A stretch of 64,000 nucleotides of DNA, from the sequence record PP952733.1. One strand, written 5' to 3'. Positions 5,832 through 52,370 of the stretch are shown here, piece by piece. A model generated the notes under the pieces. It saw nothing but the letters and a program-made list of their open reading frames with translations. It was not told the DNA's origin and made no database searches. How positions within the stretch are numbered: the first letter of the stretch is position 1; each line of letters starts with the position of its first letter. The DNA comes from Escherichia phage vB_EcoM_H12. Made by a program: the position numbers and the translations under genes.

Positions 5832-6296
5832 TTACTTTGGATATACACTGTCAAGATAAATGTCAGCTTCCATTCTACGTCTGTTTTTCAAGCCGTTTGA
5901 AGTGACCTTCTTACCTTTGACTGTAATCTTGTTCCACCACTGCATAGCTTCTGCACAACCTACCTTATTACCAGCATTGTGGCGCTTGATAAATGTAGAG
6001 TCCTGCATAGCTGTGATACCAATGTTATATGTTTCACTTACAAGTGCATCGAACTCATTCTGAGAAGTTGGAGCCTTGATAGCTTTGTTCACTGCTGCAA
6101 CAAACTTTTCAACATCTGCGAGAAGATACTGTTCAGCTTGTTCAGCCGTGATTTTCATACCCATCTTAACAGGTTTACCAGAAATACTGGTTGTCCCATA
6201 CCCAATTGTTGGGATTCCAGCAGAGTCTTCGTAAGCCTCTAACTTAAGACCCTCAAAGAACTTAATGGCTTCTAAACCTTTTCTTGAGAGTTGCAT
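5832..6296 (-). CDS. endolysin, GH24 (T4/lambda-type) lysozyme family
   Basis: N-terminal motif LEAIKFFEGLKLEAYEDSAGIPTIGYGTT matches the catalytic Glu / TIGYG signature of phage lysozymes. Confidence 0.8.
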   Translation of the reverse strand: MQLSRKGLEAIKFFEGLKLEAYEDSAGIPTIGYGTTSISGKPVKMGMKITAEQAEQYLLADVEKFVAAVNKAIKAPTSQNEFDALVSETYNIGITAMQDSTFIKRHNAGNKVGCAEAMQWWNKITVKGKKVTSNGLKNRRRMEADIYLDSVYPK

Positions 6297-7429
6297 TATT
6301 CACCTCCTGCTGGATTAACTGTAACTGTTGCCGCATTAGATGTTACCGAACCACCTGCGCCAGTTACTACACAAGTGTAGCTTCCTGCATCAGCAGCGGT
6401 TGCACCTTCTTTGGTGTAAGTTGCAGTAGTTGCGTCTGGGATGTTTTCCTCACCCTTCTTCCACTGATAGCCTGTTGCACCTGTTGCCACAACATTCAGC
6501 GTTAAGGTCTCACCTTCAGTGATTTCTTGATTGGTTGGCTGTTGAGTGATTACAGGAAGAGCATTCACAGTTACTGTCGCTGCATTAGATGTGACTGAAC
6601 CACCTGCACCAGTTACAACACAAGTGTAAGAACCTGCATCTGCTGGAAGCGCACCAGTCTTGCTATAGGTAGCATTTGTAGCTGAAGGGATGTTAGAGCC
6701 ATCTTTCTTCCACTGGTAACCTGTTGCACCTGTTGCAGTCACTTCCAAGCTAATGCTTCCACCCTCATTGATGGTCTGGCTAGAAGGTTGCTTGGTAATC
6801 ACTGGTAGAGCATTAACAGTAACTGTTGCCGCATCTGAAGTAACACTTGTCCCAGCCTCTCCAGATACAACACAAGTATATGAACCAGCATCGGCAGGTA
6901 CTACAGATTGTTTTGTGTAAGTTGCAGAAGTGGCACTGGAGATGTCCTCACCATCCTTCTTCCACTGATATCCAGTGGCGTTATTTGCGATAACGTTTAA
7001 GGTCAGTGTGTCACCCTCATTAACCGTTTGGTTTGTTGGTTGCTGAGTAATTGCGGGTGGCTTAATAGCATCCTTCAGCTTAGCATTCAACATTGAGAAC
7101 GGCTTAACCCTCGCCAACCACTCACAATACACTGTATCAACGTCTTTACCATTGATGATTGCATACTGTAAATCCATGAAGAAATCAGCAGTCCTCATCT
7201 GTGCACCAACACTGTAAAGGAGTTCATCACTAAAAGGGACTTTGTAGTCTGGTTTGTAGTCAAACTTCTCAACCTCTGCAATATCAGCTTCAGGCCAATA
7301 TGAGCTATAGGTGAGTGGTAAAATAGCTTCTTGATATGTTCTAAAATCATATCTCTTACCAGCCTTTACATTTGCGATGAAGCCCTTCACAAATTCTTTG
7401 AAGTCTGGGTAAGTCTTTGCTTTAATCAT
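6296..7429 (-). CDS. protein with N-terminal domain plus three tandem Ig-like repeats (377 aa)
   Basis: Three consecutive ~85-aa repeats (ITQQPTNQ...GYQWKKDG...AGSYTCVV...ATVTVN); N-terminal ~120 aa is paralogous to the adjacent 123-aa protein. Confidence 0.6.
   Translation of the reverse strand: MIKAKTYPDFKEFVKGFIANVKAGKRYDFRTYQEAILPLTYSSYWPEADIAEVEKFDYKPDYKVPFSDELLYSVGAQMRTADFFMDLQYAIINGKDVDTVYCEWLARVKPFSMLNAKLKDAIKPPAITQQPTNQTVNEGDTLTLNVIANNATGYQWKKDGEDISSATSATYTKQSVVPADAGSYTCVVSGEAGTSVTSDAATVTVNALPVITKQPSSQTINEGGSISLEVTATGATGYQWKKDGSNIPSATNATYSKTGALPADAGSYTCVVTGAGGSVTSNAATVTVNALPVITQQPTNQEITEGETLTLNVVATGATGYQWKKGEENIPDATTATYTKEGATAADAGSYTCVVTGAGGSVTSNAATVTVNPAGGE
6299..7072 (-). repeat. 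Three tandem ~258-bp coding repeats (Ig-like domain units)
   Basis: Direct repetition visible in the protein and in the nucleotide sequence. Confidence 0.7.
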
Positions 7430-7797
7430 TTCTTTTTAGCCTCTAAACGTGCGTTTAATCTGAAATAGCCTTTATGTTGTGGAGACACATCACTAACAAC
7501 AATACCTTCAACTTTATAACCCTTACCAATTACATACTGGATATCCATAAGAAACGTACCAAGACCAACAATGTGGAACATTGGGTATAGTAACTTATCT
7601 GAATCTGGAAGTTTGATGTCTGGTTTATAGGTAGGTTGCTCGGCAGTTGGTGTAATATCTTCTTCAGGCCATCTACTCATTCTCCATGTTAAAGGTGATG
7701 AAATAACATCGTTAAGATTGTATTTTTCACCATTCTCCACGGAGCGGATATAGGATTGTAGGAAGCAATAAAAGTCTTTTGCACTCTTAGCCTTCAT
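7426..7797 (-). CDS. hypothetical protein (123 aa), paralog of N-terminal domain of the Ig-like repeat protein
   Basis: Shared motifs KDFxxFxxxxIxxVxxGxxY, WPExDI, YKPDxKxPxSDxLLY, FxMDxQYxIxxGxxV with 6296..7429. Confidence 0.55.
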   Translation of the reverse strand: MKAKSAKDFYCFLQSYIRSVENGEKYNLNDVISSPLTWRMSRWPEEDITPTAEQPTYKPDIKLPDSDKLLYPMFHIVGLGTFLMDIQYVIGKGYKVEGIVVSDVSPQHKGYFRLNARLEAKKK

Positions 7798-9054: not shown

Positions 9055-9426
9055 ATGAAAAACAGAACAAACAAAGGCCAGTTTAAAAAAGGCCAGTCTG
9101 GAAACCCATCTGGAAGACCAAAAGGCTCTCGTAACAAAAGCTCACTTGTAAAAGCTCAACTGACCATTGATAATTCTGCTGAGTTTGCTGCAAAGTTGTT
9201 TGAAGCGATTGTTACAAGGGACGCTGCTAAGCTTGCAGAGTTTGGTCTAAACACAGATGACGTAACCATCAAGAGCATGATTGAGGTCGGTAAAACTATC
9301 ATGACTCACTCAGCAGGTGAGATGAAAGCAATTGCAGCAGATACTAAGAAGACCCCTGATAATGGTGGTCAGTCACAGACAGATAACAAACCAACGTTCT
9401 CTGCTGTAGCTACTCTCAAAAAATAA
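9055..9426 (+). CDS. hypothetical protein (123 aa) with basic Gly/Pro-rich N-terminus
   Basis: AAGAGG RBS; N-terminal KGQFKKGQSGNPSGRPKGSRNK. Confidence 0.5.
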   Translation: MKNRTNKGQFKKGQSGNPSGRPKGSRNKSSLVKAQLTIDNSAEFAAKLFEAIVTRDAAKLAEFGLNTDDVTIKSMIEVGKTIMTHSAGEMKAIAADTKKTPDNGGQSQTDNKPTFSAVATLKK

Positions 9427-9507
9427 TTTTAAAAGGTGTTGACAGGCTCTACAAAGTTGCTCTAAAGTCTGTCACATCAAACAACAAATGAGAGAAGAGA
9501 GTAAAAT

Positions 9508-10923
9508 ATGAGCGAATTATTTAAACATGCGCACCTTCATGCAGGTCGAACTGAAAATGGTGCTGTAAACCATACTTCATCAATGTCTGCTCTGGTAGAC
9601 TTCTACAAAGCCGCTGGCTCAAGCCGTAGCAATGTAGAAATCTTACCAGACCTGTTCTACAAAGCTTTGCGTGAGGATGTTGATGTTGCAGTTCGTATTT
9701 TACTGCATATGCGAGATGTACGAGAAGGTATGGGTGAGCGTAAAGCTTTCCGAACTGTTTTACTTCAAGCGATTGAAGATAAAGTTTTAGAGCCTACACA
9801 GGTTCTTCGCATTATGGATAAGATTGCAGAACTTGGTCGTTTTGATGACTTCAAAATCTTCGTAGGTACTCGTTTTGAGACAGATGCCTTCAAACATTTA
9901 GAAGCAGCATTACTAGACCCTGCAACAGCAGGTTTAGCGGCTAAGTGGTTACCACGAGTAAAACCACGCCACAAACAGTTTGTAAAACGTTTCTGTAAGT
10001 TTGCAAACTTAAGTGAGAAGGAGTATCGCACGCTGTTATCTGCACTGTCTGATACGGTTGAGCAAAAAATCTCTGCTAATGAGTTTGGTAAGATTGACTA
10101 CAGCAAGATTCCTTCACTCGCTGCTGCACGTTACCAAAAGCTCTTTAACCGTAAAGATGGGGAACGTTACAAAGCTTACATCGAGTCCCTCTCAAAAGGT
10201 GAGGCTAAGATTAACGCTGGTGCTGTTTACCCATACGATGTGATTAAATCTATCAAGTATGGTAATGCAGATGTTGCTAATGAGCAGTGGAAAGCACTAC
10301 CAAACTGGATGGCAGAAGGTGAGAACATCTTGTGTATGACTGATGTTTCAAGCTCAATGTCTTGGGTGAATCTTGGTTCAATCACTGCCCTTGATATTGG
10401 TGTATCACTTGCTTTGTATGTAGCAGAACGCAACACTGGTTGCTTTAAGAATGAGTTAATGGTTTACTCAACAAACCCTCACTTCATCGAACTGAGTGGT
10501 GATTTACGAAACCGTCATCGTCAGGTAATGCGTCATGTTGAATACGGTTCAACTAACTTACAAGCAGCTTTTGACCGTATTCTTGAGGTAGGTAAGCGAA
10601 ACAACTTGACTCAGAAAGATATGCCAAGTAAGCTTATTATCTTCTCCGATATGGAGTTCAATCAGGTTGATGGAGCTAACGGTCGTACAAACTTTGAAGC
10701 AATTCAGAGTAAGTACAAAAAAGCTGGATACGAAATGCCACAACTAGTATTCTGGTACTTAGCAAACCGTAATGGTACTTGCGAAGTATCTGTTAAGGAT
10801 AATGGTGTAGCAATGGTATCAGGGTTCTCTCCAGCCACTTTAAAAGCTCTGCTTGGTGGTGAGAAGTTTGACCCAATCAGCATAATGCTCAAAGCGGTAA
10901 TGATTGACCGTTACATCTGGTAA
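9508..10923 (+). CDS. vWA-domain protein with MIDAS motif and long helical N-terminal domain; candidate Ro60-like (TROVE-vWA) protein
   Basis: DxSxS MIDAS motif (CMTDVSSSMSW) about residue 277 preceded by hydrophobic strand; about 270-aa N-terminal domain; TROVE-like assignment is inference from domain layout only. Confidence 0.6.
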   Translation: MSELFKHAHLHAGRTENGAVNHTSSMSALVDFYKAAGSSRSNVEILPDLFYKALREDVDVAVRILLHMRDVREGMGERKAFRTVLLQAIEDKVLEPTQVLRIMDKIAELGRFDDFKIFVGTRFETDAFKHLEAALLDPATAGLAAKWLPRVKPRHKQFVKRFCKFANLSEKEYRTLLSALSDTVEQKISANEFGKIDYSKIPSLAAARYQKLFNRKDGERYKAYIESLSKGEAKINAGAVYPYDVIKSIKYGNADVANEQWKALPNWMAEGENILCMTDVSSSMSWVNLGSITALDIGVSLALYVAERNTGCFKNELMVYSTNPHFIELSGDLRNRHRQVMRHVEYGSTNLQAAFDRILEVGKRNNLTQKDMPSKLIIFSDMEFNQVDGANGRTNFEAIQSKYKKAGYEMPQLVFWYLANRNGTCEVSVKDNGVAMVSGFSPATLKALLGGEKFDPISIMLKAVMIDRYIW

Positions 10924-10934
10924 AAAGTTTTAAA

Positions 10935-10970
10935 AAGGGTATTGACAATGTGTTTAATACCCTTTAATAT
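10935..10970 (+). promoter_or_regulatory. Sigma70-like promoter (TTGACA-17-TAATAT) embedded in a 9-bp inverted repeat
   Basis: TTGACA at 10942-10947, TAATAT at 10965-10970; AAGGGTATT / AATACCCTT arms flank the -35 box. Confidence 0.55.
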
Positions 10971-11033
10971 GTTCTACATAGAAACGAAATGAGAGCTTTT
11001 CTAAGATACTGAAAAATATTTTAAAAAAGTTCT

Positions 11034-11062
11034 TGACAACCACTAAAAAATAATGTTAAAGT
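11034..11062 (+). promoter_or_regulatory. Promoter-like element upstream of tRNA array
   Basis: A-tract then TTGACA at 11034-11039; weak -10 (TTAAAG). Confidence 0.4.
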
Positions 11063-11088
11063 GGTTACATAGAGTTTGAAAAGTTTAT

Positions 11089-11165
11089 CTCTGTTTAGCT
11101 CAGCTTGGTAGAGCGTTCCGTTTGGGGCGGTAAGGCCGGAGGTTCAAGTCCTCCAACAGAGACCA
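11089..11165 (+). tRNA. tRNA-Pro (anticodon UGG)
   Basis: Cloverleaf folded by hand: 7-bp acceptor CTCTGTT/AACAGAG, anticodon loop TTTGGGG, T-arm GGAGG-TTCAAGT-CCTCC, CCA encoded. Confidence 0.85.
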
Positions 11166-11172
11166 AATTAAT

Positions 11173-11250
11173 GTTCCAGTAGACAAAATGGTAAAGTCAC
11201 CACTCTTTCAAAGTGGATATTTGAGGGTTCAAATCCCTTCTGGAACGCCA
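11173..11250 (+). tRNA. tRNA-Glu (anticodon UUC)
   Basis: Acceptor GTTCCAG/CTGGAAC, anticodon loop CTTTCAA, T-loop TTCAAAT, CCA encoded. Confidence 0.8.
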
Positions 11251-11257
11251 GTTTTGA

Positions 11258-11330
11258 CAGAAGACCAATTGCAGCAAACTTAATCTTATTCATCTGACAC
11301 GAAATCGGACAAAGAAGAGATTTGGTCTGG
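11258..11330 (+). ncRNA. Stem-closed RNA-like element A (CAGAAGACCAAT...TTTGGTCTGG)
   Basis: Terminal inverted repeat AGACCAA/TTGGTCT enclosing about 50 nt; conserved CAGCAA next to 5' arm; one of four related elements. Confidence 0.4.
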
Positions 11331-11341
11331 TCATTAAGAAT

Positions 11342-11418
11342 TGCGGGTATAGAGAAAGGGCGTCTCACATGTCTCATTAGCATGGTATCGGCAGGTTCGA
11401 CTCCTGCACCCGCCTCCA
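11342..11418 (+). tRNA. tRNA with anticodon CAU (Met or Ile2 type)
   Basis: Anticodon loop CTCATTA, T-arm GCAGG-TTCGACT-CCTGC, CCA encoded; first acceptor pair mismatched. Confidence 0.75.
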
Positions 11419-11424
11419 AATTTA

Positions 11425-11488
11425 CAGAAGACCGTTTACAGCAATATTTATTAAATTTTTAGCGGAAAAATTGAAAGATACGGTCTGG
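11425..11488 (+). ncRNA. Stem-closed RNA-like element B (CAGAAGACCGTT...ACGGTCTGG)
   Basis: Terminal inverted repeat AGACCGT/ACGGTCT; compensatory changes relative to elements A and C. Confidence 0.4.
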
Positions 11489-11501
11489 TAATACTAAACA
11501 T

Positions 11502-11578
11502 GGTTAGGAAGCACATAAGGTATGTGCGGTCGCCTGTTAAGCGAATGGCACAGGGTTCGAATCCCTGACTAACCGCCA
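11502..11578 (+). tRNA. tRNA-Asn (anticodon GUU)
   Basis: Anticodon loop CTGTTAA, T-arm CAGGG-TTCGAAT-CCCTG, CCA encoded. Confidence 0.8.
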
Positions 11579-11587
11579 AATTTAAAT

Positions 11588-11675
11588 GTGTCGTTATCCC
11601 GTAGATGGTAGCGGTGGGGACTGTAAATCCCTTGTCATTGAGACTCGGTAGGTTCGACTCCTACACGGCACACCA
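11588..11675 (+). tRNA. tRNA-Tyr (anticodon GUA), long variable arm
   Basis: Anticodon loop CTGTAAA, about 14-nt variable arm, T-loop TTCGACT, CCA encoded. Confidence 0.8.
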
Positions 11676-11681
11676 AATAAA

Positions 11682-11759
11682 GGTTATGTAGTTTAATCTG
11701 GTTAAAATACTCCCCTGTCACGGGAGATGATGAGGGTTCAAATCCCTTCGTAACCGCCA
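11682..11759 (+). tRNA. tRNA-Asp (anticodon GUC)
   Basis: Anticodon stem CTCCC/GGGAG with loop CTGTCAC, T-loop TTCAAAT, CCA encoded. Confidence 0.8.
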
Positions 11760-11845
11760 AATTATAATAAGTATTTCAAAATGATGTTTGAGAGGGCTAT
11801 TCAGCCCCTCCCTTAAAGAGTTTTTACGAGTATTCTTTAAAGGAG

Positions 11846-11918
11846 CAGAAGACCAAATTCAGCAAGTTACTTAAAATTTCAAGCCAATTTAATTTTGAAA
11901 AATTTAAAACTTGGTCTG
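11846..11918 (+). ncRNA. Stem-closed RNA-like element C (CAGAAGACCAAA...TTGGTCTG)
   Basis: Terminal inverted repeat AGACCAA/TTGGTCT; conserved CAGCAA after 5' arm. Confidence 0.4.
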
Positions 11919-11932
11919 ACTCAACAAATTTA

Positions 11933-12064
11933 CAGAAGACCGTTTACAGCAAAACTTAAACAATCTATTTCTCCGGTAAAGAAAAGGCGAAGGTTCGATT
12001 CCTTCACTCGGCAGATGTCGAGTTGGTGTAATGGTAGCACTTAAGATGATAAACAACGGTCTGG
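11933..12064 (+). ncRNA. Stem-closed element D with permuted tRNA-like module (Y RNA-like candidate)
   Basis: Closing stem AGACCGTT/AACGGTCT; inside, in order: T-arm GAAGG-TTCGATT-CCTTC (11989-12005), 7-bp hairpin ACTCGGC-AGAT-GTCGAGT (12006-12023), D-arm-like TGGTGTAATGGTAGCAC; no anticodon arm or CCA. Confidence 0.45.
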
Positions 12065-12065
12065 T

Positions 12066-12209
12066 AATTATCTTTGTAGATAAGTTATTAAGCTTACTTG
12101 TGAGTATGCGACCACAAAGGGTGAAAGGGTAAATTCTAGATTTAAACCCAACAACGCACATCGCTACAGACCTTAAGCAAGTCTGGGTAGCTTATCTACA
12201 AAGATAATT
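12066..12209 (+). repeat. 19-bp perfect inverted repeat (AATTATCTTTGTAGATAAG / CTTATCTACAAAGATAATT) enclosing about 105 nt
   Basis: Arms at 12066-12084 and 12191-12209 are exact reverse complements; inner hairpin CAGAC-CTTAAGCAA-GTCTG. Confidence 0.6.
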
Positions 12210-12223
12210 TAATGGAAGTGTAG

Positions 12224-12289
12224 CAGAATGGTGATGCGGCAGACTTTTAATCTGACAGGCGATGGGTTCGAATCCCTCCACTTCTACCA
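12224..12289 (+). tRNA. tRNA-Lys (anticodon UUU)
   Basis: Acceptor GGAAGTG/CACTTCT, anticodon loop CTTTTAA, T-loop TTCGAAT (T-stem has two mismatches), CCA encoded. Confidence 0.7.
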
Positions 12290-12293
12290 ATAT

Positions 12294-12370
12294 GGTTCAG
12301 TCGCAGATAAGGTAATGCAGGGGTCTCATAAGCCCTATGAATGTGGGTTCGATTCCCATCTGAACCTCCA
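12294..12370 (+). tRNA. tRNA-Met (anticodon CAU), second copy
   Basis: Anticodon stem with three consecutive G-C pairs, loop CTCATAA, T-arm GTGGG-TTCGATT-CCCAT, CCA encoded. Confidence 0.75.
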
Positions 12371-12371
12371 A

Positions 12372-12447
12372 GCTGGTATAGTTAAGAAGGTTATAACACT
12401 CCCCTGATAAGGGAACATCGGTGGTTCGATTCCACCTACCAGTACCA
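12372..12447 (+). tRNA. tRNA-Ile (anticodon GAU)
   Basis: Anticodon loop CTGATAA, T-arm GGTGG-TTCGATT-CCACC, CCA encoded. Confidence 0.8.
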
Positions 12448-12462
12448 ATTTCAATAAAGTTG

Positions 12463-12491
12463 TTGACATTGAGATGTGACCACTTTATAGT
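12463..12491 (+). promoter_or_regulatory. Sigma70-like promoter TTGACA-17-TATAGT inside tRNA array
   Basis: TTGACA at 12463-12468, TATAGT at 12486-12491, upstream A-tract. Confidence 0.55.
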
Positions 12492-12783
12492 AACTAAAAT
12501 ACTTCATAATATGTATAATTCAAACACCAATACATGAGCGTTAGACGTAACACAATGTGGGGAAATTTGTTGTACATATTCTGAATAGTTTTCGTTGCGT
12601 AGCGTCTATTTTGCAAATTTAAAATAAATGCAAACGACAATGTTTTTCTGGCAGTAGCTTGATAGGCTAAACACCAGTGAGGTCTTCCAATCCCTCATCA
12701 AAGAATTTGGCGTACTAGCCCACGGTATGATTAATAAGGTGGGCATCTTTAAGTACTTTCTAAGAGAGTCTTTAAAGATTAAT

Positions 12784-12860
12784 GCACCCTTAGTTCAATT
12801 GGATAGAGCAACGGTCTTCTAAATCGTTAGTTACAGGTTCGAATCCTGTAGGGTGTGCCA
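12784..12860 (+). tRNA. tRNA-Arg (anticodon UCU)
   Basis: Acceptor GCACCCT/AGGGTGT, anticodon stem ACGGT/ATCGT with loop CTTCTAA, T-loop TTCGAAT, CCA encoded. Confidence 0.8.
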
Positions 12861-13001
12861 AATAGTTAGCAGATTGCTTAGACGACCTTATCGGGTCTCC
12901 GTGTAAGGAGGTGGTCTGTATCTCATGTTTCCAGAACATGTAAATAATCTGAGAAGGGGCTTTACAGTGTTGCGAAAATACGGTAAGCTTCGAATTATAG
13001 T

Positions 13002-13084
13002 GTGGGACGATGTTAAGACTCTAAGGCATGAGCAACGGCCTCCAAAACCGTTTCAAAGGGGTTCAACTCCTCCGTCCCATGCCA
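13002..13084 (+). tRNA. tRNA-Trp-like (anticodon CCA), atypical expanded D region
   Basis: Acceptor GTGGGAC/GTCCCAT, anticodon loop CTCCAAA, T-arm AGGGG-TTCAACT-CCTCC, CCA encoded; about 26 nt between acceptor and anticodon stem. Confidence 0.45.
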
Positions 13085-13097
13085 AAGTCTTATTAGG

Positions 13098-13185
13098 GGT
13101 AGGTAGCGGCTAATGGCAGCCAAACAGTCTTGAAAACTGTTGCCACTGTAGAGATACGGTGAGGGTTCGACTCCTTTACTTACCG
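13098..13185 (+). tRNA. tRNA-Ser (anticodon UGA), long variable arm
   Basis: Anticodon stem ACAGT/ACTGT with loop CTTGAAA, long variable arm, T-loop TTCGACT; CCA not encoded. Confidence 0.75.
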
Positions 13186-13340
13186 CCTAATAAGATTTAA
13201 AACCAAGCTTCATTCGGATGTTGCTTTGGTATCCCTCGTGTATTGTCGTACACAAGTAAAGCACCTAGTAGGTGTCACGGAGAAGAGATAATATCAAGCT
13301 CTCCAAAGGTTCTAGTCACCGGATTAAACAAGACTATGCA

Positions 13341-13361
13341 AAGACCTATTTAGGTCTTTTT
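13341..13361 (+). terminator. Terminator-like hairpin inside tRNA array
   Basis: AAGACCT-ATTT-AGGTCTT followed by TTT; AT-rich stem so probably weak. Confidence 0.4.
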
Positions 13362-13440
13362 AGAGGGCTTCTAAGGTTATTACAGCTTGTTGTGGAACCT
13401 TGTTGCTTAGGTTCTTAGAAGTTCTCTAAAAAGATTTAAT

Positions 13441-13518
13441 GGGAGATTGACGGTAATTGGTAAACCTACCATCCTTAGAAGTTGGTGTTTGAGGGTTCGA
13501 ATCCCTTGTCTCCTACCA
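13441..13518 (+). tRNA. tRNA with anticodon UAG (leucine-type anticodon) but short variable arm
   Basis: Acceptor GGGAGAT/GTCTCCT, anticodon loop CTTAGAA, 5-nt variable loop, T-arm GAGGG-TTCGAAT-CCCTT, A73, CCA encoded. Confidence 0.7.
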
Positions 13519-13525
13519 AATTAAT

Positions 13526-13601
13526 GCAGGTGTAGCAAAATGGTTATGCGGCTGACTCTTAATCAGTAAGACGATGGGTTCAATTCCCTCCACCTGTACC
13601 A
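13526..13601 (+). tRNA. tRNA-Lys (anticodon CUU)
   Basis: Close paralog of the UUU tRNA at 12224; anticodon loop CTCTTAA; CCA encoded. Confidence 0.75.
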
Positions 13602-13605
13602 AATT

Positions 13606-13681
13606 GGGGTCATAGTTTATATGGTTAAAATTCGAGTTTTGCAAACTTGGGAACTGAGTTCAATTCTCAGTGACTCCACCA
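13606..13681 (+). tRNA. tRNA-Ala (anticodon UGC)
   Basis: Acceptor GGGGTCA/TGACTCC, anticodon loop TTTGCAA, T-arm CTGAG-TTCAATT-CTCAG, CCA encoded. Confidence 0.8.
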
Positions 13682-13687
13682 ATTAGT

Positions 13688-13762
13688 GCATCCATAGTTT
13701 AAACGGGAAAATTACAGTCTTCCAAACTGAGGTTGAGGGTTCGATTCCCTCTGGATGCTCCA
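13688..13762 (+). tRNA. tRNA-Gly (anticodon UCC)
   Basis: Acceptor GCATCCA/TGGATGC, anticodon loop CTTCCAA, T-arm GAGGG-TTCGATT-CCCTC, CCA encoded. Confidence 0.8.
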
Positions 13763-13769
13763 AATTAAT

Positions 13770-13845
13770 GCTCCTATCGTATAATTGGCTATTACGGTTG
13801 CCTTGTAAGCAACTTATCAGGGTTCGAATCCTTGTGGGAGCACCA
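13770..13845 (+). tRNA. tRNA-Thr (anticodon UGU)
   Basis: Acceptor GCTCCTA/TGGGAGC, anticodon stem GTTGC/GCAAC with loop CTTGTAA, T-loop TTCGAAT, CCA encoded. Confidence 0.8.
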
Positions 13846-13850
13846 ATTCA

Positions 13851-13936
13851 GAGGTCAAGTGAAAGACCGCTTTGAGTCAACTGAAGACCGTAACAAATCC
13901 CACGGAGTTGAGTTAGCGGCACAACTTCAGACCTCT
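13851..13936 (+). ncRNA. Structured hairpin element between tRNA-Thr and tRNA-Val
   Basis: 6-bp closing inverted repeat GAGGTC/GACCTC around about 75 nt with nested complementary segments (TCAACT/AGTTGA) and a GAAGACCGT motif; no canonical T-loop. Confidence 0.35.
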
Positions 13937-13941
13937 TTCAT

Positions 13942-14016
13942 ACTCGCTTAGTTTATATGGTAAAACATCACCCTTACAAGATGAAGAAAAAGGTTCAAGC
14001 CCTTTAGTGAGTACCA
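13942..14016 (+). tRNA. tRNA-Val (anticodon UAC)
   Basis: Acceptor ACTCGCT/AGTGAGT, anticodon loop CTTACAA, T-arm AAAGG-TTCAAGC-CCTTT, CCA encoded. Confidence 0.7.
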
Positions 14017-14017
14017 T

Positions 14018-14095
14018 GTTCCAGTATCCCAATTGGCAGAGGATGCAAGCTCAAACCTTGTACTAGTGACGGTTCGAATCCGTCTTGGAACACCA
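14018..14095 (+). tRNA. tRNA with anticodon CAA (leucine-type anticodon) but short variable arm
   Basis: Acceptor GTTCCAG/TTGGAAC, anticodon stem GCAAG/CTTGT with loop CTCAAAC, 6-nt variable loop, T-arm GACGG-TTCGAAT-CCGTC, A73, CCA encoded. Confidence 0.7.
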
Positions 14096-14100
14096 ATTTT

Positions 14101-14176
14101 GCAGGATTAGTTCAAATGGATAGAGCAACAGTCTACGAAGCTGTTAATAGGGGTTCGAATCCCTTATCCTGCGCCA
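14101..14176 (+). tRNA. tRNA-Arg (anticodon ACG)
   Basis: Acceptor GCAGGAT/ATCCTGC, anticodon stem ACAGT/GCTGT with loop CTACGAA, T-loop TTCGAAT, CCA encoded. Confidence 0.8.
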
Positions 14177-14195
14177 ATTTAAAGAGGCTATTTAG

Positions 14196-14753
14196 ATGAG
14201 ATATTTGAAGTATGCTTCATGGATTTTCTTAGCTTTGTTAGAGCCATTTGCAGCAATCTTAGCAGTTATCTTAGCACCTTTTGTAGTTCCATTCTACAGT
14301 GAAAAGAAAGGACACTTACCTTTCGGCTTCAGATGGATGGAAACATATGACAACCCAATTGATGGTGATGAAGGTCATGTTGAACGATGGGCTAAGATTA
14401 GAAAGATTGGTAAGCTTGGTGTCTATATGCAGAGAGTTGGTTGGCTCTGGAGAAACAAAGCTTATAACTTCTCTTACCATGTGTTAGGAAGAGATGTAAA
14501 AGATGTTACTAAGTGGAAAGGTAATATCAATGTAAGTTCTAACCCTGAAGATAATCAGACAGGTTATCTCCTAATGTGGAACAGTAATGCTTGGGGATTA
14601 TTCGCTTTTATCCCATCAATTAAAGTCTTTGGTAAGCAATTCTACTGGAGAATTTATGTTGGATGGAAACTTAAAAGTGTTGTTCCAAAAGAAAGAGCAT
14701 TCTCAAGGGAAAGAGTTATGTTGGCATTCTTTATTCATCCACTAAGAAAGTAA
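14196..14753 (+). CDS. putative membrane protein (185 aa) encoded inside the tRNA array
   Basis: AAAGAGG RBS; N-terminal hydrophobic helix (WIFLALLEPFAAILAVILAPFVVPF); Trp-rich. Confidence 0.55.
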   Translation: MRYLKYASWIFLALLEPFAAILAVILAPFVVPFYSEKKGHLPFGFRWMETYDNPIDGDEGHVERWAKIRKIGKLGVYMQRVGWLWRNKAYNFSYHVLGRDVKDVTKWKGNINVSSNPEDNQTGYLLMWNSNAWGLFAFIPSIKVFGKQFYWRIYVGWKLKSVVPKERAFSRERVMLAFFIHPLRK

Positions 14754-14761
14754 AGATTTAA

Positions 14762-14837
14762 AGGGGATTAGTTTACAAGGTTAAAACCTCGGTCTTTGAA
14801 ATCGAAGAAGTTGGTTCAATTCCAACATCCCCCGCCA
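14762..14837 (+). tRNA. tRNA-Gln (anticodon UUG)
   Basis: Anticodon stem TCGGT/ATCGA with loop CTTTGAA, T-arm GTTGG-TTCAATT-CCAAC, CCA encoded; first acceptor pair mismatched. Confidence 0.75.
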
Positions 14838-14839
14838 AT

Positions 14840-14918
14840 GCTCCATTACTCCAATTGGTAGAGAGGCCAGACTTAAAATCTGTGTTATGTATCGGTTCGA
14901 ATCCGATATGGAGTACCA
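14840..14918 (+). tRNA. tRNA with anticodon UAA (leucine-type anticodon) but short variable arm
   Basis: Acceptor GCTCCAT/ATGGAGT, anticodon loop CTTAAAA, about 7-nt variable loop, T-arm ATCGG-TTCGAAT-CCGAT, A73, CCA encoded. Confidence 0.7.
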
Positions 14919-14923
14919 AATTT

Positions 14924-14999
14924 AGCGGTATAGCATAACTGGCAATGCAGCAGTCTCTGAAGCTGTCTTATTAAGGTTCAAATCCTTATGCCGCTGCCA
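14924..14999 (+). tRNA. tRNA-Gln (anticodon CUG)
   Basis: D-stem GCAT/ATGC, anticodon stem GCAGT/GCTGT with loop CTCTGAA, T-loop TTCAAAT, CCA encoded. Confidence 0.7.
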
Positions 15000-15030
15000 C
15001 TTCTAAGGATTCTTACGAGAGTCCTTAAAT

Positions 15031-15106
15031 GTGGCCTTATCATAAATGGTAATGACCCATGCTGTGAACATGGTCTATACGGGTTCAAATCCCGTAGGTC
15101 ACCCCA
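15031..15106 (+). tRNA. tRNA-His (anticodon GUG)
   Basis: Acceptor GTGGCCT/AGGTCAC, anticodon stem CCATG/CATGG with loop CTGTGAA, T-arm ACGGG-TTCAAAT-CCCGT, CCA encoded. Confidence 0.8.
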
Positions 15107-15111
15107 ATTTA

Positions 15112-15188
15112 TAGTCCAAGTAGCTTATATGGTTAAAGCGCGTGTCTGAAAAACATGAGAAGAGGGTTCAAATCCCACTGGACTACCA
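15112..15188 (+). tRNA. tRNA-Phe (anticodon GAA)
   Basis: Acceptor TAGTCCA/TGGACTA, anticodon loop CTGAAAA, T-loop TTCAAAT. Confidence 0.75.
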
Positions 15189-15204
15189 ATTTCAAAGGTG
15201 CTTA

Positions 15205-15939
15205 ATGAAAGAGATGACAGAACAAGGTAAGGAGATTTTTAATCTCTTAAAAACTGGTAAAGGGTTATCTAACCCCCTTATTACTGGTGCAGCAGTTCTC
15301 GGTGGAACAGTAGCTGCCTCTACATCACTTGTAAGCTCTATTAGCTCTGTAACAGACCCTACAATAAAGGATAAGCTTATTGCTGCTGGACTTACAACAG
15401 TTCTGCTTAACAGCTTTACCACAAGTCTGACAAGCACTACATCAACTACTAAAACACTGACAGATTACGGTCAAAAGTCCATTGATGAGTTTTCATCACG
15501 TATGCAGGTAGCAAAAGGTTATTCTAATGTTATGGGTGCAGCAGGTGAACAAGTTGGCTGTACACCATTTAGTGGTATTATGGGTGTTGCTACAGAGTAC
15601 GGTCAAAAAGCTATTGACACAATTAACAGCACACTAGACGGTGTTAATGATGTATTAAGTGACTTACAAGACGCTATTGACAAAGGTCTTGATACTATTT
15701 CTGATTTAGCTAACCAAGCTGTTAGTAAGATTAATGAAGGTATCTCGAAGATTACAGCTTATGCAGATGAAGTTGTGCAGATGATTGAAGAAGAAGCTGC
15801 CCTTATTGCAGAGTACCTTAAAACAAATATCAATGGGTTCTTAGCAGGTATCTTACCAGACTGGTTTGATGATGCTTGTAAAACTGGTGTAATTGATACT
15901 ATTGCAACACCAGAGATGAAGAACGCATTACAGAAATAA
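15205..15939 (+). CDS. hypothetical Ser/Thr-rich protein (244 aa) inside the tRNA array
   Basis: Start moved from track 15142 to ATG 15205 (AAAGG RBS) so it does not overlap tRNA-Phe; low-complexity S/T segment. Confidence 0.5.
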   Translation: MKEMTEQGKEIFNLLKTGKGLSNPLITGAAVLGGTVAASTSLVSSISSVTDPTIKDKLIAAGLTTVLLNSFTTSLTSTTSTTKTLTDYGQKSIDEFSSRMQVAKGYSNVMGAAGEQVGCTPFSGIMGVATEYGQKAIDTINSTLDGVNDVLSDLQDAIDKGLDTISDLANQAVSKINEGISKITAYADEVVQMIEEEAALIAEYLKTNINGFLAGILPDWFDDACKTGVIDTIATPEMKNALQK

Positions 15940-15941
15940 AT

Positions 15942-16034
15942 GGAAGATTAACCCTAAAAGGTAAGGGAGCAGTTTGCTAAACTGCCAGTAGCTGAGAAAT
16001 CGGTGTACCAGTTCAAGTCTGGTATCTTCCTCCA
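15942..16034 (+). tRNA. tRNA-Ser (anticodon GCU), long variable arm
   Basis: Acceptor GGAAGAT/ATCTTCC, anticodon stem GCAGT/ACTGC with loop TTGCTAA, long variable arm, T-arm ACCAG-TTCAAGT-CTGGT, CCA encoded. Confidence 0.8.
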
Positions 16035-16038
16035 ATTT

Positions 16039-16114
16039 GAATCCGTGACAGAAATGGATATGTACCTGTCTGCAAAACAGGTTTATAAGGGTTCGAGTCC
16101 CTTCGGATTCTCCA
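16039..16114 (+). tRNA. tRNA-Cys (anticodon GCA)
   Basis: Acceptor GAATCCG/CGGATTC, anticodon stem CCTGT/ACAGG with loop CTGCAAA, T-loop TTCGAGT, CCA encoded. Confidence 0.8.
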
Positions 16115-25284: not shown

Positions 25285-26637
25285 ATGTGGAATCCAATTG
25301 TTAATGTAGATATTACATTGAACACCGCAGGAACTACAAGAGAAGGTTTTGGGCTGCCACTATTTTTAGCTTCAACAGATAACTTTGAAGAAAGAGTCCG
25401 TGGTTACACTTCCTTAACTGAAGTTGCTGAAGATTTCGATGAAAATTCTGCTGCATATAAGGCTGCTAAACAACTTTGGAGTCAGACTCCTAAAGTAACT
25501 CAGCTTTATATTGGTAGACGTGCTATGCAGTACACTGTATCAATTCCTGATGAGGTTACTGAGAGCACCGACTATTCTTTAACTGTAGCTGTGAGCGGTG
25601 GAGTTTCTCAGCCATTCCAGTACACTTCACAGTCAGAAGATACTGCTGAGAAGGTGCTACAGCAGCTTAAAACTCAGATTGAAGCAGAACCTTCTGTAAA
25701 AGACCTTGTTACTGTCAATGTAACTGGTGCTGGCGGTTCAGCAACAATGGTAATCACCAAAGCTGGTGTCAACGACTTCGTGAAGGTTACTACTACAGCA
25801 CAAACAGTGTCAATTGCAAGCACAACTGCTGACACAGCATCGACTGCTCTGGCAGCTATTGAAGCGTATTCAACTGACTGGTATTTCATTGCAGCAGAAG
25901 ACAGAACTCAACAGTTTGTCTTAGCAATGGCTTCTGAGATTCAAGCTCGTAAGAAGATTTTCTTTACAGCTAACTCCGATGTAGCAGCACTGCAAGGTAC
26001 AGAATTAGCGAGTGCAAATGATGTTCCAGCACAGCTTGCTAAGAATCAGTACACTCGTACAGTTTGCTTGTGGCATCACACAGCAGCAGAAGACTATCCA
26101 GAAATGGCTTATATTGCTTATGGTGCTCCGTATGATGCAGGTTCAATTGCTTGGGGTAACGCACAGTTAACTGGTGTAGCTGCTTCTCTACAGCCATCTA
26201 ATCAGAGACCTCTGACAAGTATTCAGAAGTCAGCTTTAGATGCACGTCACTGTAACTTTATTGACCTTGATGGTGGTGTTCCAGTGGTTCGTAGAGGGAT
26301 TACTTCTGGTGGGGAATGGATTGATATCATCCGTGGTGTTGACTGGTTAGAATCAGACCTGAAAACTTCTCTGAGAGACTTGCTAATTAACCAGAAGGGT
26401 GGTAAGATTACTTATGATGATACTGGTATTACCCGTATTCGTCAAGTCATTGAAACCTCTCTGCAAAGAGCAGTCAACAGAAACTTCCTGTCATCTTACA
26501 CAGTTAATGTTCCTAAAGCCTCTCAAGTTGCTTTGGCAGACAAGAAAGCTCGTATCCTGAAAGATGTTACCTTCGCAGGTATCTTGGCAGGGGCTATCTT
26601 GGATGTTGACTTGAAAGGTACAGTGGCTTACGAATAA
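25285..26637 (+). CDS. putative tail sheath protein (450 aa)
   Basis: Size and position upstream of a 148-aa tube-like protein, chaperones and tape measure; no motif. Confidence 0.45.
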   Translation: MWNPIVNVDITLNTAGTTREGFGLPLFLASTDNFEERVRGYTSLTEVAEDFDENSAAYKAAKQLWSQTPKVTQLYIGRRAMQYTVSIPDEVTESTDYSLTVAVSGGVSQPFQYTSQSEDTAEKVLQQLKTQIEAEPSVKDLVTVNVTGAGGSATMVITKAGVNDFVKVTTTAQTVSIASTTADTASTALAAIEAYSTDWYFIAAEDRTQQFVLAMASEIQARKKIFFTANSDVAALQGTELASANDVPAQLAKNQYTRTVCLWHHTAAEDYPEMAYIAYGAPYDAGSIAWGNAQLTGVAASLQPSNQRPLTSIQKSALDARHCNFIDLDGGVPVVRRGITSGGEWIDIIRGVDWLESDLKTSLRDLLINQKGGKITYDDTGITRIRQVIETSLQRAVNRNFLSSYTVNVPKASQVALADKKARILKDVTFAGILAGAILDVDLKGTVAYE

Positions 26638-51557: not shown

Positions 51558-52370
51558 ATGAATACTACTGTAGACCAGATGCTTGAAGAAAAAGGTATTG
51601 ACGAAGCATTCTTAATCAATGCCGTAGAAAGCATGGCTATTATTCTTCGTGGAAACAACTACACAGAACAGTTTATGCCTGCAAGCTATAACTTGCCTAA
51701 AGACAAGTCTGATAACGGTGCTTTTGCAGAACAGGTTAATATGATGCTGTGTGACAAAACGCTTGCTTTAGCATCTATCGTTGTAGGTGTTGATGCTCTT
51801 GCAGAGTTCATTTTTTATGAGATGCAGAAAAATGACTATATTGCCATGACCTCTGAAGAAAAAGACTCGCTACTGCTCTTAGATAATAATGAGCTAGTTG
51901 ACCTGTTAATTTCGTCAACTAGTGCTGTTATGGCTGCTCTTGAGAAGCGCATGGAAGAGAAGTTGTCACGATATGAAAAACTTGATTGGGGTGTAGAAGA
52001 GTTAAACCCACGAATCAAAGAGATTATCCAGCAAACTAAAGACTCTTTAGCAGAAGCTGTGAAAGATGATTCTGTAGCTGATGTAGAACCACTACAGGTG
52101 AAGGTCGCTCTGATGATTCCAGCTATTTCTACAATGATGAATATCGTTGCACTAATCCAACTTTCTCAGATGTTGGGTGTCACCATTGAGTTCGTTGAGG
52201 AGATGACTGGTGGTGTAAGTATGCAAGCAATCAATGATGTTTTGGTAAACATTGGTGCTTCAATCATTGAAGAGAAACTGCGTATTAACTTCGGTGATGA
52301 TTTTGTGAAGCAAATCTCAGCTATGGCTGAAAAAGAACACTCACAGATTAATACTGACCGACTGCACTAA
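51558..52370 (+). CDS. hypothetical protein (270 aa)
   Basis: ORF in track. Confidence 0.5.
   Translation: MNTTVDQMLEEKGIDEAFLINAVESMAIILRGNNYTEQFMPASYNLPKDKSDNGAFAEQVNMMLCDKTLALASIVVGVDALAEFIFYEMQKNDYIAMTSEEKDSLLLLDNNELVDLLISSTSAVMAALEKRMEEKLSRYEKLDWGVEELNPRIKEIIQQTKDSLAEAVKDDSVADVEPLQVKVALMIPAISTMMNIVALIQLSQMLGVTIEFVEEMTGGVSMQAINDVLVNIGASIIEEKLRINFGDDFVKQISAMAEKEHSQINTDRLH

Follow-up and report, generated by a model that had tools for sequence, protein, structure and literature searches.

A Ro60-like gene and four small RNA elements

We analyzed a stretch of 64,000 nucleotides (nt) from Escherichia phage vB_EcoM_H12 (PP952733.1), here called the window, which carries a gene for a Ro60-like protein and, downstream of it, four small RNA elements (A to D) that are candidate partners of this protein. 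The window is from a Felix O1-like myovirus (Felixounavirus, Ounavirinae), and over its region 9400-12500 it matches Escherichia phage ECOH1 with 99% identity and about 240 other records, Felix O1 included, with 93-97%. The gene is an ATG open reading frame on the + strand (9508-10923), and the elements lie 330-1140 nt downstream of it on the same strand. Gene and elements stand at the start of an array of 26 tRNA genes, all on the + strand, which ARAGORN places from 11089 to 16114. The elements almost exactly fill tRNA spacers in this part of the array: A the one between tRNA-Glu and tRNA-Met and B the one between tRNA-Met and tRNA-Asn, with C and D located between tRNA-Asp and tRNA-Lys.

The encoded protein of 471 aa has an N-terminal helical-repeat domain (residues 1 to about 270) followed by a vWA domain with a MIDAS (metal-ion-dependent adhesion site). 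Pfam assigned DUF2828 (residues 172-264, 2.9e-29) and DUF7788 (residues 275-455, 1.3e-43) to it, PHROGs placed it in phrog_850, 'RNA-binding protein', and NCBIfam gave no match. The MIDAS is complete, with DVSSS at residues 279-283 and with D279, S281, S283, T349 and D381 invariant in an alignment of 40 family members. An AlphaFold2 model made on this alignment (predicted local distance difference test, pLDDT, 88; predicted template modelling score, pTM, 0.88) is all-helical in residues 1 to about 270 and alpha/beta in the C-terminal domain. Foldseek comparison with the PDB gave eight significant matches over the full length (E 6e-8 to 3e-6), all to Ro60 structures and the best to vertebrate Ro60 (PDB 1YVP, 2I91). 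The modelled protein has the helical-repeat ring closed by a C-terminal vWA domain that is typical of Ro60, and it is by this model a Ro60 fold, yet it forms a sequence family separate from TROVE. An earlier reading of the letters alone (the sequence-only reading) had proposed a vWA domain with a DxSxS MIDAS behind an N-terminal domain of about 270 aa, the layout of Ro60/Rsr. The invariant MIDAS residues, the model and the Foldseek matches bear this out; the Ro60/TROVE identity that it suggested holds for the fold, where only Ro60 was matched, but not for the sequence (Pfam, phmmer and profile searches).

The DUF2828 family is large and mostly viral, as 2885 proteins among 8000 candidates scored belonged to it at E<=1e-5. 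By tblastn, relatives were found in 709 phage records, including phages of Escherichia, Vibrio, Campylobacter, Listeria, Staphylococcus, Enterococcus, Bacillus and Mycobacterium, and the Mycobacterium phage homologs are annotated 'Ro-like RNA binding protein'. The protein in the window is the direct ortholog, of the same length and in the same position, of gp130 (bas63_0130) of Bas63 (Escherichia phage JohannRWettstein), which was reported to be structurally similar to Ro60 and to be needed to counter the Ppl defence system (PhageMaP preprint, 10.1101/2024.10.10.617714).

Elements A to D share one module. All four open with CAGAAGACCnnUUnCAGCAA and close with nnGGUCUG (repeat family D12), and each folds into an outer helix of 3-4 bp, an AGA/G internal loop and an inner helix, the module helix, whose variable positions covary between the copies (AA:UU in A and C, GU:AC in B and D). 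Element A (11255-11333, + strand) has the outer helix UGAC/GUCA, the module helix 11262-11268/11322-11328, U-G-CAGCAA at 11270-11277 and a 3' G at 11329, and its cargo, i.e. the sequence between the two module strands, contains the hairpin UCUGA-CACGAAA-UCGGA. The corresponding parts of element B (11422-11491, + strand) are UUAC/GUAA, 11429-11435/11480-11486, U-A-CAGCAA at 11437-11444 and G 11487, and those of element C (11843-11922, + strand) are GAG/CUC, 11850-11856/11911-11917, U-U-CAGCAA at 11858-11865 and G 11918.

From 83 distinct instances the register of the module can be written as A1 G2, five free positions, N8, U9, N10 and CAGCAA, followed by the cargo, a complementary strand that ends in C-U, and a G. 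A, B, C and D all fit this register with a 7-bp helix, and AG and U9 are exactly 8 positions apart in 80 of the 83 instances. The distal pairs of the helix are always A:U and G:C, while pairs 3-7 make use of all four Watson-Crick types among 67 distinct instances; pair 7 is formed in 62 of these, although the scan did not demand it, and position 8 is mostly unpaired (44 of 67). In the same set 90.9% of the module cells are paired; shuffles reach 63.7%, and slid partners 32-41%. Covariation scores 0.761 as compared to 0.187 in shuffles, and none of 500 shuffles came as high.

Element D (11930-12067, + strand) begins 1007 nt past the stop codon of the Ro60-like gene, and sequence reading, folding and a covariance model (CM R3, see below) all identify it as a YrlA-like tRNA mimic. 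A 4-bp outer helix (UUAC 11930-11933/GUAA 12064-12067) and an 8-bp module helix (AGACCGTT 11937-11944/AACGGTCT 12055-12062) enclose the element, with U-A-CAGCAA (11945-11952) and the 3' G (12063) as single-stranded parts. Inside follow an anticodon-stem-like helix (CUUAA 11955-11959/UUAAG 12041-12045), which leads into the terminal stem and not into an anticodon loop, a V hairpin of 5 bp with a 7-nt loop at the position of a long variable arm (11968-11984), a T arm (GAAGG-TTCGATT-CCTTC, 11989-12005), a closed acceptor-like hairpin of 7 bp with one G-U (ACTCGGC-AGAT-GTCGAGT, 12006-12023), U8 and G9 (12024-12025) and a D arm (GTGT-AATGGTA-GCAC, 12026-12040). Read as a tRNA, D has U8, A14, G18G19, A21, the wobble pair U13:G22, G53, U54U55C56, A58 and C61 all in place. 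The tRNA-type invariant bases of the T-loop (UUCGAUU with flanking G and C) and the D-loop (AAUGGUA), together with U12024, are constant across Ounavirinae, and both arms are invariant across the genera of this subfamily. The acceptor-like stem shows compensatory change: it reads ACUCGGC/GUCGAGU in the window, ACACG/CGUGU in Suspvirus, and in Mooglevirus ACCCUUC/GAAGGGU with GCCA after it. Evolutionarily, the V hairpin is unstable: its loop measures 7 nt in the window and 6 nt in Felix O1, and in Mooglevirus another hairpin takes its place.

ARAGORN made no tRNA call for D, and the Rfam tRNA model reached 22 bits against a cut-off of 29, with a 5'-truncated match that covered the first half of the element only. 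The acceptor stem is closed by the AGAU loop, and the one hairpin that might resemble an anticodon arm has a loop of either 6 or 7 nt among relatives. Judged from these comparisons, D is a tRNA-shaped RNA under selection and not a decoder. We also considered D as a tRNA that has the module inserted at 26/27 and keeps an intact anticodon arm, and rejected this, as CUUAA/UUAAG fills the position of the anticodon stem and the hairpin stands at the variable-arm position with a loop length that is not conserved. The 8-bp stem, the T arm, the 7-bp hairpin and the D arm had been located correctly in the sequence-only reading, and folding returned the same arms. Its statement that D lacks an anticodon arm and CCA and is not a tRNA gene agrees with the missing CCA and the missing ARAGORN call, while the first part needs qualifying in view of the hairpin at 11968-11984. 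This hairpin, the 4-bp outer helix 11930-11933/12064-12067 and the terminal signature that D shares with A-C had escaped it.

The module and its cargo in distant phages

Eighty IMG/VR loci with relatives of the DUF2828 gene were fetched, and the 65 from phages other than Ounavirinae (39-47% protein identity, 773 kb) were analyzed. In these loci the gene strand holds 92 copies of the bare motif AGN6TNCAGCA, as compared to 11 on the opposite strand. A perfect 6-bp partner followed by G was present within 300 nt downstream for 72 of the 92 motifs on the gene strand, as compared to none of the 11 on the other strand and 5 of 92 control 6-mers. With a strict structural scan, 76 modules were counted on the gene strand as compared to 5 on the opposite strand and 2.0 in shuffled sequence, and at least one module was detected in 40 of the 65 loci with the strict scan and in 48 with a relaxed pattern. 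The modules are concentrated close to the DUF2828 gene: 62 of 75 lie within 1 kb of it, a distance that holds 18.6% of the flank bases, and 41 lie within 300 nt. They are about equally frequent upstream (37) and downstream (38) of the gene, and none is inside it. The pairing of a Ro60-like protein with a Y RNA-like element, as put forward in the sequence-only reading, thereby gains strong support from strand, from proximity and from the models of distant phages described below.

Modules with different helix sequences lie downstream of the DUF2828 gene in Klebsiella phage FBKp34 (51% protein identity, Stephanstirmvirinae) and in Cronobacter phage S13 (41%, Straboviridae). Eight copies precede the gene in Aeromonas phage LAh_6, and three elements of a variant form (UGG.../...CCA-G) directly follow the stop codon in Mycobacterium phage Rumpelstiltskin. 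Listeria phage WIL-1 has three modules, and Campylobacter phage CJLB-7 two, directly before the DUF2828 start. Loci L027 and L090 have modules and no tRNA genes; the constant partner of the module is therefore the DUF2828 gene and not the tRNA array. Some loci that scored negative have CUGCAA in place of CAGCAA, or a register that is off by one. In one clade (L045, L062, L085) an RNA of about 170 nt lies downstream of the gene (about 7400-7600) with CUGCAA as its 5' motif, e.g. GGAAUGC-AUA-CUGCAA ... GCAUUCC-G, and is missed by strict scans.

Covariance models that were built from other phages recovered the elements of the window. R2, made from 28 stand-alone elements of non-Ounavirinae phages and run over the whole window on both strands with filters off, had as its top three matches B (29.5 bits, E 5e-4), C (23.0 bits, E 0.014) and A (22.5 bits, E 0.018). 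Nine tRNA-like elements of distant phages share, by RNAalifold, a consensus made up of module helix, T arm, acceptor stem and D arm, in which 19 of 23 pairs show compensatory changes. With the model made from these nine (R3), D reached 74.3 bits (E 4.9e-12), matched over the full model and ranked first in the 64-kb window. Since R3 is derived from unrelated phages, this score shows that D is more than a chance resemblance. The runner-up, at 31.6 bits, is a tandem-tRNA junction, a search artefact of which Chen et al. 2014 (PMC4201824) have warned. In other DUF2828 loci R3 also found members that it had not been trained on, with 42-88 bits and all on the gene strand. A further model, R1, was made from 35-nt pseudo-sequences (5' part, AAAA linker, 3' part) and gave only noise; it cannot accommodate real cargo and was abandoned.

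The cargo that the module encloses falls into several classes. The smallest is an unstructured stretch of about 20 nt, seen in minimal modules just before the ribosome-binding site of the DUF2828 gene, an arrangement that suggests translational autoregulation by the protein. Minimal cargo-less modules of this kind lie at about 5935-5990 in L033, at 5950-5985 in L032 and at 5907-5943 in L077, and in L033 the closing ...CAAACU-G runs straight into AGGAG. Other RNAs carry 50-60 nt that include a single small hairpin, whose loop often has 7 nt, and others again 95-140 nt with a permuted tRNA body like that of D, several of them with an encoded N-CCA after the 3' strand of the acceptor. A cloverleaf in normal order but with no acceptor stem is found in L078 (8329-8427), and the largest RNAs measure 200-250 nt.

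In addition, a module closed by a loop of 3-4 nt caps the anticodon stem in otherwise normal-order, CCA-ended tRNA-like genes (L006 7003-7116; L009 6896-7016 and 7026-7138; L008 2494-2610), which thus contain the module hairpin plus CAGCA. GenBank names such genes 'tRNA-Asp' (114 nt), 'tRNA-Ser' (121 nt) and 'tRNA-OTHER' (113 nt); judging from their sequences, these entries of 110-120 nt are likely Y-like RNAs mis-annotated as tRNAs, and the capped, CCA-ended RNAs might be chargeable. All of the tRNA-like topologies lead to one overall shape, in which a tRNA elbow and acceptor arm are joined to the module through the anticodon stem.

The genes around the module vary between phages. In FBKp34 (L006 579-3658) the DUF2828 gene is immediately preceded by genes for a ribose-phosphate pyrophosphokinase and a nicotinamide phosphoribosyltransferase, a pair of the NAD-reconstitution type of counter-defence, and downstream of its tRNA array this phage has an IS200/IS605-type transposase accessory gene. 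In WIL-1 (L091 2429-2980) a ROOL RNA (RF03087; 87 bits, just under the gathering score of 99.1, E 4e-16) is located in the tRNA region about 1 kb upstream of the DUF2828 gene and the modules. Within 3 kb downstream, the same phage has genes for the 'tRNA splicing ligase' RtcB, an HD-domain protein and a NADAR protein, an echo of the bacterial rsr-rtcB linkage. LAh_6 has Rnl2, and S13 a CCA-adding enzyme, as neighbours of the DUF2828 gene.

In the window, a DUF5681 protein gene (9055-9426) lies directly upstream of the Ro60-like gene. A sigma-70-like promoter (TTGACA-18-TAAAGT, 9439-9468, + strand) precedes the Ro60-like gene by 40 nt, and two more (10942-10970 and 11033-11062, + strand) stand before the tRNA/small-RNA cluster; all three are predicted from consensus matches only. 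The ARAGORN tRNA genes in this part, all on the + strand, are tRNA-Pro and tRNA-Glu (11089-11250), tRNA-Met (CAU; 11342-11418), which separates elements A and B, tRNA-Asn, tRNA-Tyr and tRNA-Asp (11502-11759), and tRNA-Lys, tRNA-Met and tRNA-Ile (12214-12447), and the module scan found no further modules in the cluster beyond these genes, to 16114. Genes for HNH homing endonucleases are inserted at differing points of the array in Felix O1 (L002 3671-5036), mistaenkt (L005 2997-3425) and Michonne (L004 4872-5324), which makes the tRNA/small-RNA array a hotspot for such insertions; the array of the window has none.

Two other stretches between the tRNA genes are structured. Directly 3' of D lies an element 'E' (12066-12209, 144 nt) with a terminal stem of about 24 bp (AAUUAUCUUUGUAGAUAAG... 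/ ...CUUAUCUACAAAGAUAAUU), a minimum free energy of -46.5 kcal/mol and a z-score of -5.5 (0 of 200 shuffles as stable). It has no Rfam match, and it holds a mini hairpin AGACC-UUAAGCAA-GUCUG (12168-12185) that resembles a degenerate module. The unannotated 86 nt from tRNA-Asp to element C (11760-11845) form three hairpins (-23 kcal/mol, z -4.1, 0 of 200 shuffles as stable) and match no known family. A module-like pair AGAGCCAUU-UGCAGCAA ... GAUGGCUCU-G at 14240-14448, also present in UAB_Phi87, lies inside a DUF7338 open reading frame (14196-14753, Pfam E 6e-62); it keeps the AG/CU-G signature, is one base off register, has 195 nt of coding 'cargo' and is, from its sequence, probably a chance occurrence. 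Together with the matches at 25649-25695 and 52015-52077 it was treated as chance, on the grounds of wrong register, broken pairs or location in coding sequence. Away from the locus, a 377-aa protein (6296-7429, - strand), labelled 'tail protein' in UAB_Phi87, has three tandem repeats of about 90 aa (NALPVITxQPxxQ...GATGYQWKK...AGSYTCVV) that are Ig-like in appearance.

A probable phage Ro60/Y RNA particle and its alternatives

Taken together, our results make it likely that a phage form of the Ro60/Y RNA ribonucleoprotein (RNP) is encoded at the locus, with A-D as the RNA partners of the DUF2828 protein. Four observations carry this reading: the fold of the protein, the RNA module with its covariation, the same-strand linkage to DUF2828 genes across distant phages, and the place of D in a tRNA-like subclass. 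From the linkage we infer the particle itself, and direct binding between protein and RNA, the route of maturation and the cellular target belong to the mechanism that we propose here.

In this mechanism the 471-aa DUF2828/DUF7788 protein is a ring of helical repeats closed by the vWA/MIDAS domain, and its recognition module would be bipartite, built from the 5' and 3' ends of A-D and with variable cargo between the strands. Elements A-C, which have short hairpin cargo, would be the counterparts of YrlB. Element D, with its tRNA-like body, its closed acceptor end and a module that replaces the anticodon loop, would be the counterpart of YrlA. The elements would be transcribed along with the tRNA cluster from early sigma-70-type promoters, and because each of them almost exactly fills a tRNA-tRNA spacer, they may be freed when RNase P and 3' processing enzymes excise the flanking tRNAs. 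Binding of the module by the protein would then lead to display or sequestration of the cargo, and the particle could act in RNA surveillance or counter-defence during infection. This function is proposed because of Ro60 biology, in which Ro60 gates and tethers exoribonucleases and forms a complex with Yrl RNA and PNPase in phage phiLo, because of the neighbour genes in other phages and because of the Ppl-counter phenotype of Bas63 gp130.

Several points weigh against this interpretation. No sequence similarity to TROVE (PF05731) or Ro60 was detected with Pfam, NCBIfam, phmmer or a 40-sequence profile run against all PDB sequences, so that only the comparison of folds reveals the kinship with Ro60. 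On the RNA side, D had no match to Rfam YrlA (RF02553) at E<=10 in searches of 8 kb and of 201 nt, and the module is unlike the Ro60-binding motifs of known Y RNAs (GGUCCGA, GNCGAA). The thermodynamic z-scores of A-D on their own are unremarkable (-1.1 to -1.9); since stability does not separate the elements from shuffles, the evidence for them is comparative. Moreover, 17 of the 65 loci have no canonical module within 1.5 kb of the gene, some of them having the CUGCAA variant, and Ppl is, to our knowledge, not known to act on RNA. Even so, the most economical reading is a Ro60/Y RNA system whose two partners have diverged so far that they are no longer recognised by sequence, and the rivals of this reading are weaker.

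We regard it as unlikely that the module is a cis element, i.e. a nuclease processing site, a stabilizer of the tRNA transcript or an operator of the DUF2828 mRNA, and that the tRNA-like cargo represents decaying tRNA duplicates. Such a role would fit the minimal modules directly before the ribosome-binding site (L032, L077 and L033), the location of elements in tRNA spacers and the module-bearing 'tRNA-Asp' of FBKp34, which resembles a degraded copy of the adjacent tRNA-Asp. However, an operator would still imply that the protein binds the module, and decay is hard to reconcile with tRNA-like cargo that is under purifying selection across phyla (19 of 23 pairs compensatory, T and D arms invariant). 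The modules also occur in 2-8 copies per locus, on both sides of the gene (37 and 38) and in loci that have no tRNAs.

The phenotype of Bas63 is complemented by the gene, and in FBKp34 the gene lies among genes of the counter-defence type (nicotinamide phosphoribosyltransferase and ribose-phosphate pyrophosphokinase). This could mean that the protein alone is an inhibitor, for instance by a MIDAS that binds Ppl, and that the module RNAs are part of an unrelated system, or have a host factor as binding partner, and have no more than an anti-defence/tRNA island in common with the gene. We find this quite improbable, as the DUF2828 gene is the only constant neighbour of the module across unrelated contexts and phage families, on the same strand and within 300 nt in 41 of 75 cases. 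Ro60, too, keeps a MIDAS domain yet binds Y RNA.

A third possibility is that the module is a signal for RNA processing or ligation, analogous to a bulge-helix-bulge, that marks intron-containing or permuted tRNA genes, and that D matures to a working tRNA. The 3' half of D does precede its 5' half, and N-CCA comes right after the 3' strand of the acceptor in L009 (7154-7288), in L027 (5378-5508 and 5752-5880) and in the Mooglevirus homolog of D. The module is a closed hairpin within normal-order tRNA-like genes (L006 7003-7116, L008 2494-2610, L009 6896-7138), and genes for RNA ligases are near in some phages (RtcB in WIL-1, Rnl2 in LAh_6). But D has no decoding anticodon, as its anticodon-stem-like helix enters the module, and its sole hairpin with a 7-nt loop is at the variable-arm position, has a 6-nt loop in Felix O1 and is replaced by a different hairpin in Mooglevirus. 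The D of the window has no CCA, and most module RNAs enclose cargo that is not tRNA-like (20-nt stretches, short hairpins, RNAs of 200-250 nt). Neither is the helix with CAGCAA a 3-4-3 bulge-helix-bulge, for D is flanked by a helix of 7-8 bp, an AGA/G internal loop and an outer helix of 4 bp. We know of no splicing endonuclease in these hosts, and we consider this explanation very improbable.

Four copies of a 20-nt repeat inside 800 nt, and the homing endonuclease genes in this tRNA cluster of relatives, could suggest that A-D have no function and are repeats of a selfish or an accidental kind, such as miniature mobile elements or debris of tRNA pseudogenes. This idea is effectively refuted by the covariation and the linkage statistics, i.e. 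by a fixed register with a helix that covaries while its sequence is free, a strict strand bias, and conservation from proteobacterial to listerial and mycobacterial phages.

Beyond the Ro60/Y RNA particle at this locus, the module may tentatively be seen as the handle shared by a large class of phage RNPs, not recognised before, that are built on DUF2828 Ro60-like proteins and have decoys or scaffolds as cargo, although we think this rather less likely to be true than not. Such a class would span enterobacterial to listerial, campylobacterial and mycobacterial phages, and its interchangeable cargo would comprise anticodon-arm-like hairpins, permuted tRNA bodies, possibly chargeable CCA-ended bodies and RNAs of 200-250 nt. 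By such cargo, host immune nucleases directed against tRNAs or against other RNAs could be neutralised, or repair enzymes recruited, which would account for the anti-defence phenotype of Bas63 gp130.

Relation to known Ro60 and Y RNA systems

From bacteria to humans, particles of Ro60 and Y RNA are conserved, yet what they do is poorly defined, and it is an open question what the tRNA-like domain of the bacterial RNAs is for. The locus described here offers a genetically tractable phage system, as E. coli K-12 and Salmonella are hosts of Bas63 and Felix O1 relatives and knockout of the gene already has a phenotype against the Ppl defence system. Its RNA handle is sharply defined and can be mutated, and the cargo varies naturally over hundreds of phages. 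A likely RNA partner can now be assigned to a DUF family with thousands of members, the odd 'tRNAs' of 110-120 nt and the 'tRNA-OTHER' entries in phage records would be explained, and the results suggest that unannotated spacers of phage tRNA arrays are genes themselves. If the particle is indeed a decoy or repair platform against RNA-targeting immunity, it would be a novel kind of RNA-based counter-defence.

Phage Ro60 with Y RNAs (Chen 2014; phiLo 2025) and the Ro60 fold of gp130 (PhageMaP 2024) were already known. The RNA family with its distinct module, its wide spread over phage lineages and its interchangeable cargo is apparently new: no curated family covered the module in Rfam scans, which took in the region and six related loci, and we did not find the family in Rfam 15 or in the searchable literature on DUF2828, phage Ro60/Y RNA, YrlA or Felixounavirus tRNA-like RNAs.

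The closest likeness is to the bacterial Rsr-YrlA/YrlB system. Ro60 genes with adjacent Y RNAs on the same strand are known in bacteria (Salmonella, Mycobacterium smegmatis) and in 22 phages, and YrlA has the order stem, V, T, acceptor-like stem-loop, D, stem, with near-invariant T and D arms and a covarying acceptor stem (Chen et al. 2014, PMC4201824). D follows this published order, from the 5' stem through V, the T arm, the closed acceptor-like stem-loop and the D arm to the 3' stem. Both systems combine a Ro60-fold ring with vWA/MIDAS and one or more adjacent small RNAs on the same strand, whose 5' and 3' ends pair into a presumed protein-binding stem, and in both one RNA is tRNA-like (V, T, closed acceptor, D) and is accompanied by shorter RNAs that are not (YrlB there, A-C here). 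On the other hand, the protein here is DUF2828/DUF7788 and not TROVE, without detectable sequence similarity, and D fails the YrlA CM. The motif here is a 7-bp AG-helix with N-U-N-CAGCAA and a 3' G rather than GNCGAAN0-1G, which D does not contain: its 5' 30 nt (UUUACAGAAGACCGUUUACAGCAAAACUUAAAC) have no CGAA, and U-N-CAGCAA is conserved instead. The YrlA consensus has two stacked helices as compared to one helix and an internal loop here. In contrast to bacterial Y RNAs, the RNAs of this locus lie inside a tRNA operon, and module RNAs have far more varied cargo that includes normal tRNA termini with CCA, where the module closes the anticodon stem.

We therefore rejected filing D as Rfam YrlA, for it neither matches that family nor has the GNCGAA motif. 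The RF02553 model does work on related RNAs, as it scored sister elements in L006 (6707-6814) at 39.6 bits and in L027 (5770-5880) at 38.2 bits, both under the gathering score of 69. When the sequence-only reading called D a YrlA-type Y RNA and advised a search with a YrlA model, it was right about the architecture; membership in RF02553 and the GNCGAA motif did not follow, the search being negative for D and reaching only the two sub-threshold scores in its sisters.

Among phages, the Ro60 of Thermus phage phiLo binds two adjacent Yrl RNAs (Yrl1/Yrl2), and recruitment of PNPase was shown experimentally (NAR 2025, PMC12135203; PDB 9KOP, 9L5Y). As at our locus, adjacent Y-like RNAs are present, two in the case of phiLo, and subversion of host RNA metabolism or defence has been proposed. 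The phiLo protein differs in being annotated TROVE, and its RNAs are chosen by CGAA in an internal bulge and are not tRNA-like; binding is experimental there and predicted, from sequence and model, for the RNP proposed here. For Bas63 the PhageMaP preprint guessed that 'some tRNA genes' beside gp130 might be Y RNAs and named none (10.1101/2024.10.10.617714). Our candidates are instead the unannotated tRNA spacers A-D, not the annotated tRNAs, and they are defined by a module from distant phages.

Vertebrate Ro60/Y RNA (PDB 1YVP, 2I91) also resembles the phage locus in that the RNA ends, a conserved helix with conserved unpaired bases, serve as a handle for the protein while the rest is variable, although motif, size and genomic organisation differ and vertebrate Y RNAs have no tRNA-like domain. 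Ro60 proteins bind Y RNA at the outside of the ring, as in 1YVP, and take up the ends of misfolded RNAs in the cavity. Permuted tRNA genes of the Cyanidioschyzon merolae type share with D that the 3' half (T arm and 3' strand of the acceptor) comes before the 5' half and that the flanks pair. They differ from D, which has neither an anticodon loop nor a bulge-helix-bulge, and whose module also encloses cargo other than tRNA.

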